Source: an uncultured Methanosarcinaceae archaeon
Lineage (GTDB): Archaea; Halobacteriota; Methanosarcinia; Methanosarcinales; Methanosarcinaceae
DNA length: 64,000 nucleotides
Direction of reading: 5' to 3'
Assembly: GCA_963721455.1 (NCBI GenBank)
Contig: CAVRJG010000056.1
Location: 49,970-113,969, forward strand
Below the pieces are notes generated by a model. The model worked only from the letters and a program-made list of their open reading frames with translations, searched no databases and was not told where the DNA came from. Positions 5,031 through 44,236 of this stretch are shown here, one piece after another. The translations under genes and the position numbers were made by a program. Each line of letters starts with the position of its first letter. Positions within the stretch are counted from its first letter, which is position 1.

Positions 5031-5201
5031 TCTTTCTTTTCTGAAGTTATCTTGACATTGTCAAATTAACTCTTATTTGGAGCTGTTACTACTATTTCTT
5101 CCAAATGATTTACGGAATAGCCTGCATGTTTGGAGTATTCCTGTACGGACACAAGGGTTTAGGGGCTGCCCCCTTCTGTCCCTGTCTCCTCTGTTTCTCA
5201 G

Positions 5202-5516
5202 TCATTTTTTACCAATCCTTATGCAATTCCCATTCTCATAATATCCCAAATAATTATTACAGTCATCATATAAAGGGAAACAGTTTTCAGAAATAAATCT
5301 CCATTCCGGCCTAGAGGGTTCGTTTTTCTCTCCTAAAATAGGTATCAAATCATTATCCCATTCCCCATTTCGCACATCGAACACTTTAATATATTTATTA
5401 ATCACCGGAGATTCGTTTCCTTTTCTAGCATTGATAATTTGATCGTATTCTTCCTTAGTTTCTGGAAGCCTGTTAATATTTACGATTCCATCGTTTCCAA
5501 TTGTAACGCCAAACAT
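5202..5516 (-). CDS. Hypothetical protein (AT-rich)
   Basis: 104-aa ORF from ATG 5516 with a GGTGA RBS; no motif recognised. Confidence 0.6.
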   Translation of the reverse strand: MFGVTIGNDGIVNINRLPETKEEYDQIINARKGNESPVINKYIKVFDVRNGEWDNDLIPILGEKNEPSRPEWRFISENCFPLYDDCNNYLGYYENGNCIRIGKK

Positions 5517-5794
5517 TTTCTTTTCACCTTCACCTATCATTCAGGAGCACAAACAAAAGACTTTCGGAGAAAGGGTATTTTTGCCCAACCCCTCCAAAAG
5601 GTATATTAAGAGTATTTTCGCCCATCCAACGAGAAGGAGATTTAAGAAAATGAGTTGATGATGTTTTATCCCTGTAATGTGACATAGTCAAGTTATAGAA
5701 CCGAAGTTTATTAAGTGTAAATATTTAAGCTCGGAACTATAATCTGCATATGATCTATCTGCATAGGATCTACAGATAATCCGGGAGGCTATCG

Positions 5795-7162
5795 ATGACC
5801 ACTGAAGAGCATATTGATTTTTTCTTCAAGCCTGAGAGCATAGCCCTGATAGGAGCCTCGCCAAATCCCGAAAAGCTTTCCTGCACAATTCTGGAAAGCC
5901 TCCTGAAGATGAGGTTTCAGGGAAGGATATATCCCGTAAATCCGGGCTACCGGGAGATTAAAGGGCTTAGATGTTACTCGGCTCCCGGAGAGATTAAGGA
6001 CACAATTGATATTGCGATTTTTGCAGTCCCGGCATCTTCGGTTCTTGAAATCCTTAAAGGCCCTGTGGAAAATATAAAAGGAGCGGTAATTGTCAGTTCC
6101 GGTTTTCGGGAAATGGGGCCTGAAGGAAAGGAAATGGAAGTTCGCCTGAAAGAAATCTTAAAGGAGAAAGGTATCCGGGCTATGGGGCCTAATTGCCTGG
6201 GGATCTATGACACGATCTCAAAAGTGGACACCTTTTTTATAGGCCAGGATAAGGTAGAAAGGCCTGGAAGAGGCGGAGTTTCCGTGCTTACCCAGAGCGG
6301 GTCCTTTGCGGCTATGATTATGGACGAGATGGCAAACGAGGGAGCAGGGGTTGCAAGGGTTATAAGCTATGGAAATAAAGTGGATGTGGACGAAAGCGAT
6401 TGCCTCGAGTTCCTGACAGGAGATGAAGCCACAAAAGCAGTTGCGATCTACATCGAATCTGTGGAAAATGGGCGCAGGTTCCTTGAAGCTGCTTCCGGCT
6501 GTGTGAAAAAGAAACCTGTGGTAGCTCTCAAAGTTGGAAAGCGGGAGCCGGGAGCAAGAGCAGCAAGTTCCCATACAGGCGCTGTTAGCGGGAGATATGA
6601 GGCTTATGAAGCCGCTTTCCGAAAAGCAGGCGTAATAGAAGTTACAAATTATGAAGAATTGAAAGATGCCTGCAAAGTCCTGAACAGGTATCCGCTGGTT
6701 AAAGGAAAAAGAGTCCTCATTATAACTGACGGAGGAGGCATAGGGATTTCAGTTGCCGATGCCTGTGAAGAGGCCGGACTAAAGGTATCCGAAATTTCCA
6801 GCGAGGCTGTGAGGAGGCTGAAAGAGAAACTTCCGGCTTTTGCTTCCGTAAGAAATCCTGTAGACCTGACAGGCAGTGTAAGGGACGAGCACTATGTTGC
6901 TGCCCTGCAGGAGGCTTTTGGGGAGGAATACGATCTTGCAATAGTGAGCCTGCTCTGGGGTCCGCCTCTTCTTACCAGAGCAGTTGCGGAGAAAATCAGA
7001 GACTTTGCTGACAGTTGCGGAAAGCCGATCCTCATATGTTCTCCAGGCGGAAAATTCACAAGGGAAATGGCTGCATCATTCACGGCAGTAGGGATTCCGG
7101 TCTTTTTTACTCCGGACAGCGCAGTCAGGGCTGCAGCGGTGCTGTGCGGAGGAAAGAGATAA
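5795..7162 (+). CDS. acdA: ADP-forming acyl-CoA synthetase alpha subunit (CoA-binding)
   Basis: PESIALIGAS, YPVNP, GPNCLG, SQSG-like TQSG, SYGNK.DV, phospho-His motif AASSHTGA, NPVDLTG. Confidence 0.85.
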   Translation: MTTEEHIDFFFKPESIALIGASPNPEKLSCTILESLLKMRFQGRIYPVNPGYREIKGLRCYSAPGEIKDTIDIAIFAVPASSVLEILKGPVENIKGAVIVSSGFREMGPEGKEMEVRLKEILKEKGIRAMGPNCLGIYDTISKVDTFFIGQDKVERPGRGGVSVLTQSGSFAAMIMDEMANEGAGVARVISYGNKVDVDESDCLEFLTGDEATKAVAIYIESVENGRRFLEAASGCVKKKPVVALKVGKREPGARAASSHTGAVSGRYEAYEAAFRKAGVIEVTNYEELKDACKVLNRYPLVKGKRVLIITDGGGIGISVADACEEAGLKVSEISSEAVRRLKEKLPAFASVRNPVDLTGSVRDEHYVAALQEAFGEEYDLAIVSLLWGPPLLTRAVAEKIRDFADSCGKPILICSPGGKFTREMAASFTAVGIPVFFTPDSAVRAAAVLCGGKR

Positions 7163-31688: not shown

Positions 31689-32102
31689 TTAATCTGACTC
31701 AAACTGTTTTCTATTAAGAATGTACGAGACCATTTTCGGGTTAAACTTGTGCTCCCTTGCCACTGTTTCCGCAATCTGTTCACCGGGAATTCCTTCAGCT
31801 TTCAGGCTTCTTATTTTCATCATTAAGGACTGAGGGAAAATATAGTACTCGTTGATATCTTTCCTGTGTCCCCAGACATCCCCTTCGAGCAGCTGCACTT
31901 TTTGCATTTCCAGAAACATTTCTATAGCTCTTGAAACAGTCTTTTTGTATGATTTGGGTAACTGAATTATTTCCAGTTTCGGACAGGTCTCAACAAGCAG
32001 GAAAATATCTTTATTTGAAGGCCGAAACGCCAGGTGAACAACCCTTTCATTCGGATTCAGTGAGAGAATTTCATTTCTTGAACTGACAACTCTTATCTTC
32101 AT
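31689..32102 (-). CDS. DUF1699 family protein (paralogue 1)
   Basis: MKIRVVSSR.EI..LNPNE.VVHLAFRPSN.D...L.ETCPK...EGDVWGHRKDINEYY. Confidence 0.9.
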   Translation of the reverse strand: MKIRVVSSRNEILSLNPNERVVHLAFRPSNKDIFLLVETCPKLEIIQLPKSYKKTVSRAIEMFLEMQKVQLLEGDVWGHRKDINEYYIFPQSLMMKIRSLKAEGIPGEQIAETVAREHKFNPKMVSYILNRKQFESD

Positions 32103-32665: not shown

Positions 32666-33073
32666 TCAGTCCACGATTTTCTTGCTCAGGATGTAGAGGA
32701 TCATATCTGAATTCAACTTGCTTTCTCTCGAAAGCTTATCAGCAATTACCTCATTGGTAAAACGATCGGCTTTTAATTCCTGAATCTTTTCCAGCACATT
32801 CTGGGAAACATTATAATATTCGTTTATATCCTTCCTGTGGCCCCAGACATCCCCTTCCAGAAGATTTATCTTCTGCATCTCCAGGAATATTTCAATTGAC
32901 TTGGAAACAGTCCTTCTGTAAGATTTAGGAAGCTGTATTGCTTCAATCTTCGGGCATGTTTCCGCAAGCATGAATACATCCCTATTAGACGGCCTGAAAG
33001 CAAGGTGGATAACCTTCTCGTTCGGATTCAGGGTAGGAATTTCCTCCCGTGAACTAACTACTCTGATTTTCAT
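32666..33073 (-). CDS. DUF1699 family protein (paralogue 2)
   Basis: Same signature; ATG at 33073. Confidence 0.9.
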   Translation of the reverse strand: MKIRVVSSREEIPTLNPNEKVIHLAFRPSNRDVFMLAETCPKIEAIQLPKSYRRTVSKSIEIFLEMQKINLLEGDVWGHRKDINEYYNVSQNVLEKIQELKADRFTNEVIADKLSRESKLNSDMILYILSKKIVD

Positions 33074-39982: not shown

Positions 39983-41002
39983 TTAAATAAATTCATTGCT
40001 TAAAACATTACCTATCTGATCTATAGATATCGAATCGATTCCTATTGAATTTAAATGTTTTGAAAATTTAGAAGGCCTGTCCCCTCCGGGGTGATAGACA
40101 AGAGTGACTTCAGGGTTAAGTTTTCGAACCATATCTTCAAGCCCGCAGGCGTCAAGGTGGTCGCTTATCCTGATTGTTGGGTAAGTATAATCCATTCGGC
40201 AGCTGAGCACGTACTTTTTCATGTTCCAGGGAAGTTTGTTAAGGTCCCAGGGAGCTACTACGAAAACCCCATCATCTCCTTCGGAATCAAAACCTGTAAG
40301 TTCCCCGGCATCTTCAAGCATACTCCGGGTAAGGGCTCTGGTCCTTGCTTCCATACGGATAGCGCCGTCATACCCAAAACCCCTTATGAGTTCAACCGCT
40401 CGCTGGGCTTTTCCAAACTCATATGCCCCAAAAGCAACCGCCCCGTGTTCAAAAAGGGCACATTTCATGCCTTCGAGGTCATCTGTAAAATGACAGGTGG
40501 GATCTGCCGGGTCCCCATAGTTAGCTTCAGTGATAAGGACATCGCAGGGAGGAAGCTTGCTCGCATCTTTGACGTCGCCTGTAACCAGAATCCTTGTCCC
40601 TACATCGTTTTCCCAGTAAAAAGCAGTAGCGCCTGCAGTATGCTCTGTAGGAAAGGTCTTTACCTTTACCCCTTCAACCTCGATTTCCTCCCCGACCCCG
40701 CATATGCTGCCCATATATTTTTTGTCGTGCCTGATTTCAAGAGCCGTTGCTGTTTTATCCGAACACACAGCATTGGGAGAGAGCATAGCCGATTTTCCGT
40801 GATGGTCGGAATGGGCATGGGTGATCAGATAGGCATCGGGCTGCGGATGCTTTCCTGGAGTGCGGGTGGTGTCAACGGAAAACGTGCGTAAATCCCCGGC
40901 ATCATCCCTGAACCGGAGAGAAATATGCGGTTTAAAAGTCCCGCGAGAATTACGCTGCCTGAGCGCCAGCACACCAAGATCAATTAGTTTTTTAGAAATC
41001 AC
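39983..41002 (-). CDS. Metallo-beta-lactamase fold nuclease (beta-CASP-like)
   Basis: LITHAHSDHH, H.AG, VTGD, LITEANYG, FGKAQR, ISDH; likely GTG start at 41002 after AGGA. Confidence 0.85.
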   Translation of the reverse strand: MISKKLIDLGVLALRQRNSRGTFKPHISLRFRDDAGDLRTFSVDTTRTPGKHPQPDAYLITHAHSDHHGKSAMLSPNAVCSDKTATALEIRHDKKYMGSICGVGEEIEVEGVKVKTFPTEHTAGATAFYWENDVGTRILVTGDVKDASKLPPCDVLITEANYGDPADPTCHFTDDLEGMKCALFEHGAVAFGAYEFGKAQRAVELIRGFGYDGAIRMEARTRALTRSMLEDAGELTGFDSEGDDGVFVVAPWDLNKLPWNMKKYVLSCRMDYTYPTIRISDHLDACGLEDMVRKLNPEVTLVYHPGGDRPSKFSKHLNSIGIDSISIDQIGNVLSNEFI

Positions 41003-41264
41003 GCAAATCCTTGAGGAGATTAAACTTAAGCTATTTAAGGTTAGGGAAATCCCATAGACTCGTGATATACTATATAGTATAAAAATAGAAGACAGCATAT
41101 AAAATTTGAGCTTTTTTCAGATTTTGCCTTAAAGCGTCGGACAATGATGTAAAGCGGGAGTTTTCCGCAGTTGCTCTTTTTATGGATATTGCCTGGGAAT
41201 CTCAAAAACGAAAAAGAAACTGTTTTAAGTGTTAAGTTTTATCGGAACTTATGGTGTTGGGCAG

Positions 41265-43561
41265 TTGATCGACCAAGAGGAAATTCACAATCAATGTCTT
41301 AGCGAAGATCCAGAAGAACGTATAAATGCGTTAGAGACAATTAAAATCTAATTTTTCACTCCATACCAGATAAACAACAAGCATGGAATGACTTACATAG
41401 ACTGACCAATGATGAAGACAGTTATGTGAGGTCTAGTGCTGCCTCTGCTCTTGGTTCTGCATTTTCTCACGTGCCAGATAAACAACAGGCATGGAATGAC
41501 TTACATAAACTGACCAATGATGAAGACAGTTCTGTGAGGTATGAGGCTAGCCTCTAGCTCTTGGTTCTGCTTTTTTCACGTGCCAGATAAACAACAGGCA
41601 TGGAATGATTTAGCATAGACTGAGCAACTGATGAAGACAGTTGATGTGAGAGTATAGTGCTGCCGATGCTCTTGGTTCTGCATTTTCTCACGTGCCAGAT
41701 AAACAACAGGCATGGAATGACTTACATAGACTGACCACTGATGAAGACAGTTGATGTGAGGTATGATGCAGCCAATGCTCTTGGTTCTGTTTCTTCTCAA
41801 TGTCCAGATAAACAACAGGCATGGAATGACTTACATAGACTGACCAATGATGAAGACAGGTATGTGAGAACGTCTATGCAAATCACTCTCTTGGAAAAGT
41901 TTCTATATTCAAGGCTTCCCAAGCAGAAAAAGAAGAAGATTACAAAAAAGAATTAGAAAAAGCAATTGAATTTTTTGAAAAAGCAGCACAATGAATCAGA
42001 TGAATGGATATAATCCATCTCAATTTTGCCTTCCTTTTTACCGTTCTTTCTATACAATAATTTTCAAAAAACAGGAAGCAAAGGAAGAAGTGGACAAATA
42101 TCTGGCAGAAGCAAAATATGCAATTAAAGGCTCAAAGAGCAAGGAACTGCTTTTTGAAGCTGTTAAAAATCTTGCAAATGCATTAAAAGAAGTCCAGAAT
42201 CTGGAAAATCTGGATTTAGAGGCAAAAAAAGGCGAGCTTAATTTTTATAGAAAATACTGTGATCGTGCAGCAGAACTAATGAGAGAAACTGAAGAAACAG
42301 CACCTTTTGCAACAGTAGCTATGAGAAAAGGGCTGCCTATTCTGGACAGAAATCTAAAAGGGCTTATCGAAGAAATTCAAAAGAAAGCAAAGACTGCATG
42401 CAAGGAATCGAAAGGAACTGATACAGAAGAAATTGCATGTGCTGTAAGTAGGGAAGTTCAAAAATGGGAAATTGGTAGTCAAGAAGAAATTACATCTTAT
42501 GTGAGAGTTTTATCTTTACTTTAGAATCAAAAATCCCAAGGCTTCCAGAGAACGAGCATATTTTTAAAATTATTAACGAGAGCAAAGATCAAAAAGACAT
42601 TAACAAATTGTTAGAGAATGCTTCAGAGTTGATAGAAATAATACCGGAAATAACCATTGATCCTGAGAGAATGAAACCTACAATCGGAATCATTACCGCT
42701 TTACCAAAAGAGTATGCAGCGGTTAACATTTTGCTGGAAAATAAAAATGATAAATATAAGATCCCAGGCTCTGGAGCAGGCCGAAGATATTGCTTAGGAG
42801 AAATACTTTCCGAGGACGGAGATAAGCACAACTTGGTTTTGGCAACCGCAGGTATGGGCAATAACATTGCTGCAACAAGGGCATCTCTTCTTCTTGAGCA
42901 CTTCCCGAATGTAAAATCGATTATCATGGTTGGTATAGCTGGAGGTGTCCCAAATCCATGTAAAGATAAAGTAGATGATCACGTTCGCTTGGGAGATATA
43001 GTTGTATCGAATGAGAATGGGGTTATCCAGTATGACTTGATAAAACAGGAGATTCAAGAAATTACATATCGAAATCCTCCGAGACCGCCGAGTGCCAGTC
43101 TTCTGGAAGCAGTAAGATACCTCGAAGCAGAAGAAATTCTTGGAAATCGCCCCTGGGAAAAATATATCGTTCAATCTCTTTCTCAGCTTAAAACTGAGCG
43201 CCCTTCTGACGATAAAGACATTTTGTACAATTCTAGCAATCAACATGAAACGATTCCTCATCCCGAAGACCCAAAGAGAATAAAAGGTCAACCCCGCGTC
43301 TTTACCGGACCTATTGCTTCCGCAAATATACTTCAGAAAAATCCAAATGCAAGAGATAAATTACGTGAAAAATTCAAAGTAAAAGCAATTGAAATGGAAG
43401 CTTCAGGTATTGCTGATGCGACCTGGAATCATGAAGCAGGTTATCTGGTGGTAAGGGGCATCTGTGATTATTGTGATTCTCATAAAAATGACGACTGGCA
43501 GCAGTATGCGGCTGTTGTTGCTGCGGCTTATACAAGGGCTCTAATTGAATCAATGCCTTAA
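41265..43561 (+). pseudogene. HEAT-repeat protein fused to a C-terminal PNP/UDP-phosphorylase (nucleosidase) domain; multiple indels
   Basis: TTG start (LIDQEEIHNQCLSEDPEERINALE), five 36-aa repeats PDKQQAWNDLHRLTNDEDxxVRxxAAxALGSAFSHV, a helical linker (ORF 41991-42524), a -1 shift near 42503, then IGIITAL..E, MVGIAGG, VRLGDIVVS, AIEMEASG and VRGICDYCDSHKNDDWQ. Confidence 0.8.
41366..41895 (+). repeat. Five tandem ~108-bp HEAT-repeat coding units
   Basis: ccagataaacaacag/agcatggaatga starts at 41366, 41474, 41583, 41695 and 41804 (spacing 108/109/112/109). Confidence 0.92.
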
Positions 43562-43828: not shown

Positions 43829-44236
43829 TCAGGCAGGAGATTCTTTGGTCATGATATAAGCGACCATTCCGGGGTTAAGCTTGCTTTCCCTTGAAACTTT
43901 TGCTTCGATATCCTCAGTGGATTTACCTTCGATTTTCATTTCTTTTATTTTTTCAGTCACTGAAGATGGAATGGTGTAATATTCGTTTATATCCTTCCTG
44001 TGGCCCCAGACATCTCCTTCGATGAGCTGAATTCTCTGCATCCTGAGGAACATTTCTATGGACTTTGAAACCGTGGCCATGTAAGATTTGGGTAACTGAA
44101 TTACCTCAATCTTCGGGCAGGTCTCAACCAGTCCAAATATATCCTTGTTCGACGGCCTGAAGGCCAGGTGAACAACACGCTCATTAGGGTTAAGTGTAAA
44201 GATTTCTTCTCTGGAACTAACTACTCGGATTTTCAT
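43829..44236 (-). CDS. DUF1699 family protein (paralogue 3)
   Basis: Same signature as paralogues 1 and 2. Confidence 0.9.
   Translation of the reverse strand: MKIRVVSSREEIFTLNPNERVVHLAFRPSNKDIFGLVETCPKIEVIQLPKSYMATVSKSIEMFLRMQRIQLIEGDVWGHRKDINEYYTIPSSVTEKIKEMKIEGKSTEDIEAKVSRESKLNPGMVAYIMTKESPA

Follow-up and report, generated by a model that had tools for sequence, protein, structure and literature searches.

The 64,000-nucleotide (nt) stretch of DNA analysed here, which is referred to as the window and was taken from contig CAVRJG010000056.1 of an uncultured Methanosarcinaceae archaeon, raises the question of what is encoded at positions 41229-43561 of its plus strand, a region for which the list of open reading frames (ORFs) offers fragments alone. 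A first-pass annotation made from the letters had proposed a HEAT-repeat sensor fused to an immune-type PNP nucleosidase, and hence a single-gene archaeal antiviral system, an interpretation that is partly supported by sequence comparison. The locus is best described as the broken-as-assembled copy of a modular protein family named so far only from Methanosarcina-type archaea, the intact members of which are most likely single-chain conflict sensor-effectors, probably antiviral by way of abortive infection (probability roughly 0.6).

Architecture of the gene and of its intact relatives

In a three-frame reading the region forms one gene of 2333 nt and about 777 codons, in agreement with the protein of roughly 760 amino acids (aa) estimated earlier. 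It passes through all three plus frames and had correctly been recognised as frame-broken, although the breaks number about 13 instead of a few. The parts follow one another as a cap, five HEAT units, an all-helical module of about 270 aa, a short post-linker segment and the PNP domain, and this composition is confirmed by ORFs, Tandem Repeats Finder and Pfam. The N-terminal cap fragment (41229-41351, plus strand like all parts of the gene) begins with GTG in frame 0, ends with the TAA at 41349-41351 and corresponds by homology to the N-termini of intact family members ('..GVGQLIDQE.IHNQCLSDDP.ER..AL'). It is followed by the HEAT array of five 36-aa units (41366-41869), delimited by Tandem Repeats Finder, unit alignment and Pfam HEAT_2/HEAT, and by the conserved all-alpha linker module (41872-42521), which runs through frames 1, 2 and 0 (NHSLGK..FFEKAA..FCLPFYRS..YCDRAAELM..APFAT..EVQKWEIG) and contains NHSLGKVSIFKASQ, KAIEFFEKAAQ, FCLPFYRS and YRKYCDRAAELM. 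A post-linker helical segment in frame 2 (42500-42679; FTLESKIPRLPENEHIF..IIPEITIDPER) leads into the PNP_UDP_1 nucleosidase domain with its C-terminal tail (42680-43558), which was delimited by the Pfam match, stands in an intact frame and is closed by the stop codon of the ORF list at 43559-43561. This last part holds the motifs VRLGDIVVS..GVIQYD and RGICDYCDSHKNDDWQQYAAVVAAAY, so that all motifs quoted in the first-pass annotation are present. Among the ORFs, one of 177 aa (41991-42524) falls in the linker and one of 317 aa, counted from a TTG (42608-43561; 360 open codons), in the PNP part. As had been noted, the gene is AT-rich, with a guanine-cytosine (GC) content of 0.388 vs 0.428 for the whole window.

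The repeats were detected by Tandem Repeats Finder at 41366-41868 with a period of 109, 4.6 copies, 87% matches and 3% indels. Units recognised by 'PDKQQAWNDL' start at 41366, 41474, 41583, 41695 and 41804, which corresponds to lengths of 108, 109, 112 and 109 nt compared to the expected 108 nt, and their fragments are spread over frames 2, 1 and 0. Pfam HEAT_2 is matched with an E-value of 8.7e-7 on a 67-aa fragment of the window and with E-values down to 7e-61 in relatives (PF13646/PF02985). In a full-length AlphaFold (AF2) model the array forms a solenoid with values above 90 in the predicted local distance difference test (pLDDT), and the PNP block is poor (pLDDT 31-84); a Foldseek search with the same model matched only generic HEAT/ARM solenoids, including PP2A PR65 and importins. 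Repeat variability was assessed on 345 units taken from 129 family proteins, in which positions 19, 20, 23, 24 and 27 exceed 3.2 bits of entropy and 13 positions stay below 1 bit. With a spacing of i, i+1, i+4, i+5 and i+8, the five hypervariable positions are presented by the second helix on a single face. The number of repeats varies as well, with 3-14 anchor matches among 12 HEAT-PNP proteins. Fungal nucleotide-binding leucine-rich repeat-like receptors (NLRs) likewise possess repeat domains of near-identical units with few hypervariable surface positions, and we infer that the HEAT array constitutes a diversifying, ligand-binding sensor surface.

The linker is matched by no Pfam family, neither in the scan of the window ORFs nor in the intact relatives scanned. 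A linker-only model comprises 12 helices at a pLDDT of 83.3; its comparison with the PDB by Foldseek returned 0 matches at E <= 0.001 (best E 0.44), and a search of the ESM Atlas for look-alikes, carried out with residues 236-505 of relative P0001, gave no usable match. Eighteen positions are invariant in an alignment of 20 sequences, two of them being cysteines. These cysteines, C56 and C133 in the first row of the alignment (located in FCLPFYRS and YCDRA), are kept in 20 of 20 linkers from several genera, and a redox or metal role is conceivable from this conservation. The linker would be a previously undescribed helical module which couples sensing to output.

Intact relatives show that HEAT, linker and PNP are truly fused. 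On contig C17 of the same assembly, a paralogue carries all three in one open frame, and its PNP is 82-87% identical to that of the window. Within the genus the PNP was found in 8 of 59 genomes (7 of 58 without the source genome); six other genomes contain open HEAT-PNP frames of 862-1168 aa, and G020 a degraded fragment with 4 stops. Intact HEAT+PNP proteins among the matches listed include one of 1156 aa under the name of M. acetivorans, MSSAC_1868 of M. siciliae C2J (938 aa) and MSBRW_2376 of M. barkeri Wiesmoor (944 aa), and further ones are named from M. siciliae HI350 and M. baikalica. HEAT and PNP are thus linked in intact homologues, as had been expected; the architecture is not hidden, as had been claimed, given that intact orthologues are already public under names such as 'phosphorylase', the annotation of the M. 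acetivorans protein. The gene is accessory, and its architecture is already present in databases and uncharacterised. In the literature searched, together with the parts of Kaur et al. (2020, 2021) and of a 2026 Avs survey that were covered, the family is undescribed; the supplementary tables of Rousset et al. lie outside this coverage.

The absence of a nucleotide switch was likewise foreseen. A pattern search for Walker A (G/AxxxxGK[ST]) found none in all three plus frames of the gene, the motif is also absent from 12 of 12 intact HEAT-PNP proteins, and neither the window fragments nor the intact relatives scanned gave a NACHT, NB-ARC, AAA or Response_reg match in Pfam. PNPs 82-95% identical to that of the window also sit on P-loop NTPase scaffolds within Methanosarcina, such as P0003, which combines a Walker A motif (GERKIGKS) with the distal half of the linker and PNP, and P0023, with a KAP-type NTPase, the full linker and PNP. 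In P0029 and P0033, precomputed Pfam assignments give MinD-like domains, and the Walker A pattern matched neither. Because such relatives with a P-loop NTPase or MinD-like domain exist, the NTPase-less form is one variant among several.

The nucleosidase domain and the exchange of C-termini

The PNP domain matches Pfam PNP_UDP_1 (PF01048) with 74.8 bits (cut-off 25.1; E 8.8e-21) over profile positions 1-228 of 233, the match spanning residues 25-309 of the 317-aa ORF (window 42680-43534). It is also recognised by the PADLOC CBASS model 'Effector PN-superfamily' with 72.7 bits (E 5.3e-21), over the PNP part of that model only (positions 232-496 of 506). The NCBIfam equivalogs for MtnN, NF004079 and TIGR01704, score below their cut-offs (89.8 vs 169 bits and 45.2 vs 73.8 bits, respectively). 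A sequence search of the PDB yielded weak MtnN matches alone (20 distinct sequences, best E 2e-8), and the similarity to E. coli MtnN (PDB 1jys, 1nc1 and others) is likewise weak, with E 2e-8 to 3e-9. Taken singly, these models give an ambiguous picture, which the homologues resolve. A homologue search retrieved 1473 longer proteins at E <= 1e-5 from 8000 scored candidates; among the best 120, which were listed, PNPs 57-69% identical to that of the window are fused to NACHT, NB-ARC, TIR, SIR2, protein kinase or receiver domains and, furthermore, to Roc-COR/LRR, FGE-sulfatase, TPR or effector-associated domains (EAD).

A tree of 43 PNP domains was calculated with IQ-TREE from 38 rows of this homologue search, including the window, and five references, namely one CBASS PNP effector (an Acinetobacter plasmid protein adjoining a CBASS cyclase), E. 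coli MtnN, DeoD and Udp, and the genome's own housekeeping PNP. The window PNP falls inside a clade of 39 rows that unites all multidomain PNPs with the CBASS effector (ultrafast bootstrap 97, SH-aLRT 97), and the four housekeeping enzymes lie outside it. MtnN is represented by one sequence, which sits on a branch of 7.4 changes per column, and the outgroup and CBASS branches are saturated. Placed in this way, and with MtnN equivalog scores below cut-off, the window PNP is assigned by sequence to the NLR/TIR-associated PNP subgroup and not to MtnN, as the first-pass annotation had held.

The catalytic centre is conserved throughout. E35, E262-M263-E264, R283 and D287 align with E12, E172-M173-E174, R193 and D197 of E. 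coli MtnN, of which we take E12, E174 and D197 to be the essential residues, and the catalytic E, EME, R and D are kept in 38 of 38 rows as well as in the CBASS effector. At three other places the subgroup departs from MtnN: all 38 rows have L in place of M9 and I in place of S76, 37 of them have L in place of F151, and the CBASS effector shows the same three exchanges. D287 is presumably the equivalent of the aspartate mutated in Cap17 and DtcC. In the part of the preprint by Rousset et al. (2023; bioRxiv 10.1101/2023.01.24.525353) drawn on here, PNPs of the Cap17 clade are described as ATP nucleosidases and the N-terminal PNPs of Avs are placed in the same clade; union of the window PNP with Cap17 is proposed because of this clade report and a modest direct similarity to the CBASS effector, set against an MtnN similarity of 42 and 24 bits in two pieces. 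The members of the Cap17 clade (CBASS Cap17, Detocs DtcC, Avs/NLR) have the PNP_UDP_1 fold and the catalytic residues in common with the window PNP, and the three non-MtnN states (M9L, S76I, F151L) are common to its subgroup and the CBASS effector. In contrast to this clade, the window PNP stands at the C-terminus, behind a HEAT array and a novel helical module, and its substrate would be assigned by analogy. Unlike in CBASS, there is no SLOG/SAVED domain in the window gene and no CD-NTase neighbour, the adjacent genes being MBL-fold and DUF1699, and unlike in Detocs DtcC, no receiver domain was found by Pfam upstream of PNP in the window fragments and the intact relatives scanned. E. coli MtnN, in turn, has the superfamily and the catalytic residues in common, while the window protein is multidomain, accessory and set apart by a long tree branch.

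HEAT and linker DNA (window about 41363-42495) has many matching loci, spread over 29 of the 41 related genomes and frequently several to a genome, and this similarity ends just before PNP (window 42485-42498). In G014 at least seven such matches lie within 15 kb (G014:C29:242850-257899), which suggests a tandem cluster of paralogues. A search with the linker ORF gave 365 longer proteins; the best 120, which were listed, carry only the names Methanosarcina, Methanosarcinaceae or 'Euryarchaeota archaeon', and PF01048 was present on 16 of them. A linker profile built from 20 sequences and run against 1.84 billion sequences, clustered at 50% identity, retrieved 563 cluster representatives at E <= 1e-3 and 371 at E <= 1e-30. 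C-terminal tails were surveyed in the best 150 of the 563 representatives, 144 of which have a near-complete linker. Among these 144, the tail is shorter than 50 aa in 31, an approximately 100-aa domain of no known family ('..ITIPLQEISY..') in 28 and a coiled coil with a C-terminal hydrophobic anchor in 22. PNP and strongly hydrophobic transmembrane (TM) tails account for 11 representatives each; a further cluster of 11 has class-I methyltransferase domains in both scanned members, six representatives end in a nitrilase, and other tails form smaller groups.

The nitrilase tails match the effector half of the PADLOC model 'CARF_nitrilase' with E 8e-95 to 1e-102, as well as nitrilases of defence-associated reverse transcriptases (DRT). 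Since this tail type gave no Pfam CN_hydrolase match and the PDB sequence search returned 0 matches at E <= 1, the nitrilase assignment is based on the PADLOC models. In another member EAD7 is preceded by PRTase-CE, recognised by Pfam with E 4e-47 and as retron type III-A PRTase with E 2.5e-48, and yet another has EAD7 plus TPR; C-termini of the PRTase-CE/EAD7, EAD7/TPR or class-I S-adenosylmethionine-dependent (SAM) methyltransferase type occur in P0299, P0280, P0274 and P0335. In other genera of the order the scaffold bears a nitrilase (3 loci), a two-TM tail or the small domain of about 100 aa; nitrilase-type scaffold fusions are found in L051, L053 and L055 from these genera and in P0346. 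One and the same position between the genes for the CCA-adding enzyme and an OGG-like glycosylase (cca-X-ogg) is occupied by the PNP form in G041 and by the small-domain form in G012. The suggestion that effectors might be interchangeable has hence been borne out for PNP, nitrilase, PRTase-CE/EAD7, methyltransferase and TM tails, and TIR, SIR2 and CHAT were not seen among the tails examined. Conflict systems are characterised by just such an exchange of death-type effectors on an unchanging scaffold. A comparable principle is seen in the EAD10/effector-TPR-GreA/B-C-PIN proteins, which, in the part of Kaur et al. (2021; PMC8195603) drawn on, likewise combine a constant repeat region with one swapped terminal domain (PNPase, others or an EAD adaptor). 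Compared with what this part describes, the present family has HEAT repeats and a new helical module and no GreA/B-C or PIN, its variable domain is located at the opposite end, and its taxon is archaeal.

Genomic slot and state of the assembled copy

The gene is located in a variable slot, which in two relatives is taken up by a classic defence system. On the left, the slot is bordered by a single-copy gene for an MBL-fold hydrolase (39983-41098, minus strand), for which a single match was obtained in each of 13 out of 15 genus genomes, and on the right by a multicopy DUF1699 gene (43829-44236, minus strand), with 14 matches in the source genome and 4-15 copies per relative. The view that the gene lies between conserved core genes is therefore correct for the MBL-fold flank and not for DUF1699. 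The MBL-DUF1699 distance is 178-650 nt in eight genus genomes, where the slot is empty, and 2.7 kb in the source genome, where it holds the HEAT-PNP gene. It amounts to 1.8 kb in one genome, with a nitroreductase-like ORF, to 4 kb in one other and to 9-11 kb in two genomes (L033, G013:C1:1030000-1041000; L034, G014:C2:30000-42700), which contain a complete type I restriction-modification system (HsdR, HsdS, HsdM) as well as two DUF1638 genes and a TetR regulator. The TetR and DUF1638 genes recur in the slot of G008, which lacks the restriction-modification system. In G003, an 87-nt remnant (G003:C20:16193-16279) resembles the 5' end of the gene (window about 41201-41290) in an otherwise empty slot, and hints that this genome once held the gene and later deleted it. 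The window itself contains three DUF1699 copies (43829-44236, 31707-32102 and 32678-33073, all on the minus strand) of 67-96% mutual identity. Being multicopy, DUF1699 was dropped as synteny anchor in favour of the MBL-fold gene and a CofE-like gene, which is located beyond the right neighbours of the slot. A tRNA-linked integration site was rejected as explanation of the slot, no tRNA gene being present in 30000-52000.

Next to the HEAT-PNP copies inspected there is no PADLOC system. A DUF5677 gene (E about 6e-31) lies directly 3' of the intact HEAT-PNP gene in three genomes (L040:11629-12684, L041:8236-9291 and L042:11084-12109), in two of which a Fic/DOC gene is found near it (Pfam-confirmed in one); DUF5677 could be a partner or merely co-resident cargo.

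As assembled, the window copy is broken, and the pattern of its breaks is informative. Compared to the intact units of relatives, unit 1 of the HEAT array is intact, and units 2-4 carry about eight single-base indels, seven insertions and one deletion, at about 41549, 41551, 41575, 41613, 41628, 41641, 41652 and 41751. The other breaks lie at about 41345, 41870, 41989 (creating an in-frame TGA), 42005 and 42502, and at the last of these, three related contigs have one extra A after 42502. In a comparison with reads, each of four sequencing runs held at most 0.16 of the sampled words, with related sequence at 88-99% identity. Programmed frameshifting was rejected as an explanation, and so was an alternative genetic code, as the shifts occur in both directions and at non-slippery sites and no single stop codon recurs. 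An assembly artefact and a real, recent pseudogene are about equally likely explanations.

There is nearly an even chance that the breaks arose during assembly or consensus building, when reads of near-identical repeats or paralogues were merged, and that the gene is intact in the organism. Insertions outnumber deletions seven to one in units 2-4, the sole deletion lies in a T-run, and several insertions resemble merged variants, for instance CAA/CAC giving CAAC and TTAT/TGAT giving TTGAT. A deletion bias is what prokaryotic pseudogenes usually show, so that this predominance of insertions also speaks against decay. Furthermore, every break is located at or before 42502, where the multicopy DNA homology stops, and none falls in the low-copy PNP part: 0 lesions in 1,060 nt vs about 13 in about 1,270 nt upstream is, estimated from the counts, very unlikely for lesions placed uniformly. 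Substitutions in PNP number 31-32 synonymous to 9-10 non-synonymous vs 34:13 on the intact G041 lineage, and those in the linker 11:7 vs 10:13 on that lineage, which argues that selection was not relaxed; the excess of non-synonymous change to be expected of a pseudogene is absent. Six of six copies in other genomes are open, and irregularities are also seen in the C17 paralogue of the same assembly, where the repeats contain a frameshift, 45 codons are duplicated in tandem and the gene abuts high-GC DNA of foreign appearance. On the other side, the flanking genes and 13 of 14 DUF1699 matches are intact (the exception being partial, with one TGA and on a short contig), a third HEAT gene of the assembly (C3) has an open frame of 918 aa, and units 3 and 4 agree fully over a 24-nt stretch with one insertion, which could just as well be a real lesion spread by duplication of the unit.

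The C17 paralogue deserves mention in its own right (L016, G000:C17:52000-60921, about 5117-6587). After 'KVKAIEM', its sequence passes into high-GC DNA with bacterial-looking ORFs; the tandem duplication is exact and located in the PNP domain, and one frameshift is present in the repeats. Contig C17 looks chimeric, which is a quality flag for the assembly.

The alternative of a real and recent pseudogene, in which the intact PNP frame would reflect recency or chance, has a considerable chance of being right, though one short of even. The approximately 13 breaks and the in-frame stops stand in the deposited sequence, the PNP fragment of G020 is degraded too, and accessory genes of this kind are commonly lost, as the eight relatives with an empty slot illustrate; its weak points are the insertions, the substitution pattern and the lesion-free PNP part described above. 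It is very unlikely that the PNP frame of 317-360 codons has been maintained as an independent gene once the sensor part was lost: the frame is lesion-free and shows purifying-type substitution, yet the broken linker displays the same purifying pattern, the sole start is a TTG inside the post-linker, and an unregulated effector would be expected to be toxic. Because the gene is broken as assembled, the window copy could be a working system only if its breaks were introduced by the assembly. For the window itself, the pattern of breaks is a warning on assembly quality in repeat-rich genes.

Proposed role and competing readings

According to the mechanism proposed for intact members, a foreign protein would bind to the HEAT surface, and binding would be passed on through the helical module, whereupon the PNP domains would be released or assembled. 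Since active sites are shared within the oligomers that PNP-family enzymes form, assembly driven by the ligand is a plausible guess. The active PNP would then cleave the N-glycosidic bond of adenine nucleotides (ATP or dATP, by analogy with Cap17 and DtcC), and their depletion would result in abortive infection. Avs and the bacterial and fungal NLR-like STAND proteins likewise unite, within a single chain, a repeat sensor and an exchangeable effector of the death type, and the likeness extends to hypervariable positions in near-identical repeats and to the same PNP subgroup. In contrast to them, HEAT-PNP proteins lack the NTPase switch, some relatives adding a P-loop NTPase or MinD-like domain, and the order here is sensor-linker-effector instead of effector-NTPase-sensor.

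A broader formulation, to which we would give slightly less than even odds, is that the Methanosarcinales possess innate-immune-type receptors without nucleotide switch, which form a large family of at least 563 clusters (50% identity). In these, a rapidly diversifying HEAT surface would be connected by a transducer of about 270 aa, in which two cysteines are invariant, with at least six interchangeable outputs, namely ATP-nucleosidase-type PNP, CARF/DRT-type nitrilase, retron-type PRTase-CE, EAD7, methyltransferase and membrane-inserting tails. The family would be an archaeal counterpart of NLR/Avs without STAND NTPase, and the window copy one of its members, functional as a frame in the organism should the breaks prove to be assembly errors.

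Several observations weigh against an antiviral sensor-effector. With about 13 frame breaks, the full protein cannot be made from the window gene as assembled. Most tails of the family are no recognisable enzyme (small domains, coiled coils and TM anchors), so that a scaffolding or membrane-tethering role is also conceivable. The direct evidence for kinship with CBASS is limited as well: identity to the CBASS effector is 27% (E 8e-16), and the approximately unbiased (AU) test does not reject a position of the CBASS effector with the housekeeping enzymes (p 0.42; saturated branch). Of the earlier assignment to the immune-type PNPs, the grouping with NACHT, NB-ARC, TIR and SIR2 fusions therefore stands, and a common clade with CBASS Cap17 is not statistically secured. 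Moreover, many intact copies adjoin carA-carB-argG, a thin defence neighbourhood, the DUF5677 gene downstream of intact copies has no PADLOC match, and the literature searched contains no experiment bearing on the family and no paper on it. Finally, the top NCBIfam and PDB sequence matches are still of MtnN type, though weak.

An unlikely alternative is a conflict system that is not antiviral and instead serves kin or non-self recognition or programmed cell death in the multicellular aggregates of Methanosarcina, similar to the fungal HET/NLR proteins with PNP and hypervariable repeats. It would account for repeats that are highly conserved save for a few hypervariable positions and for death-type effectors including the adaptor EAD7, and it agrees with Kaur et al. 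(2020; PMC7159879), who, in the part drawn on here, associate systems of this kind with prokaryotes that are multicellular and mention Methanosarcina mazei by name. Yet PNP, CARF/DRT nitrilase and retron PRTase are best known from anti-phage systems, and the slot of the gene holds restriction-modification in two relatives. A housekeeping or regulatory salvage nucleosidase of the methylthioadenosine/S-adenosylhomocysteine (MTA/SAH) type on a HEAT scaffold, with no role in conflict, is highly improbable: apart from its MtnN-type top matches and catalytic residues, it has to face a score far under the equivalog cut-off, a gene present in just 8 of 59 genus genomes and in variable slots, a scaffold that bears nitrilase, PRTase-CE/EAD7 or TM tails instead, and nearest PNP relatives fused to NACHT, TIR and SIR2.

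The conflict sensor-effector with a probably antiviral outcome is hence retained as the preferred reading of the intact family. To our knowledge, very few archaeal immune systems beyond CRISPR and restriction-modification have been tested, and methanogens are almost uncharted in this respect. What is new here is the combination of a repeat sensor and a swappable effector without STAND NTPase, with a new coupling module, in archaea. If the proposed role is true, intact proteins bearing the names of M. acetivorans and M. barkeri would offer a genetically tractable example, and the linker would be a new coupling module worth a structure. The family would then provide a repeat sensor that controls death-type effectors without an NTPase switch, and the effector 'vocabulary' of bacterial defence, comprising ATP nucleosidase, nitrilase and PRTase, would extend into archaea.

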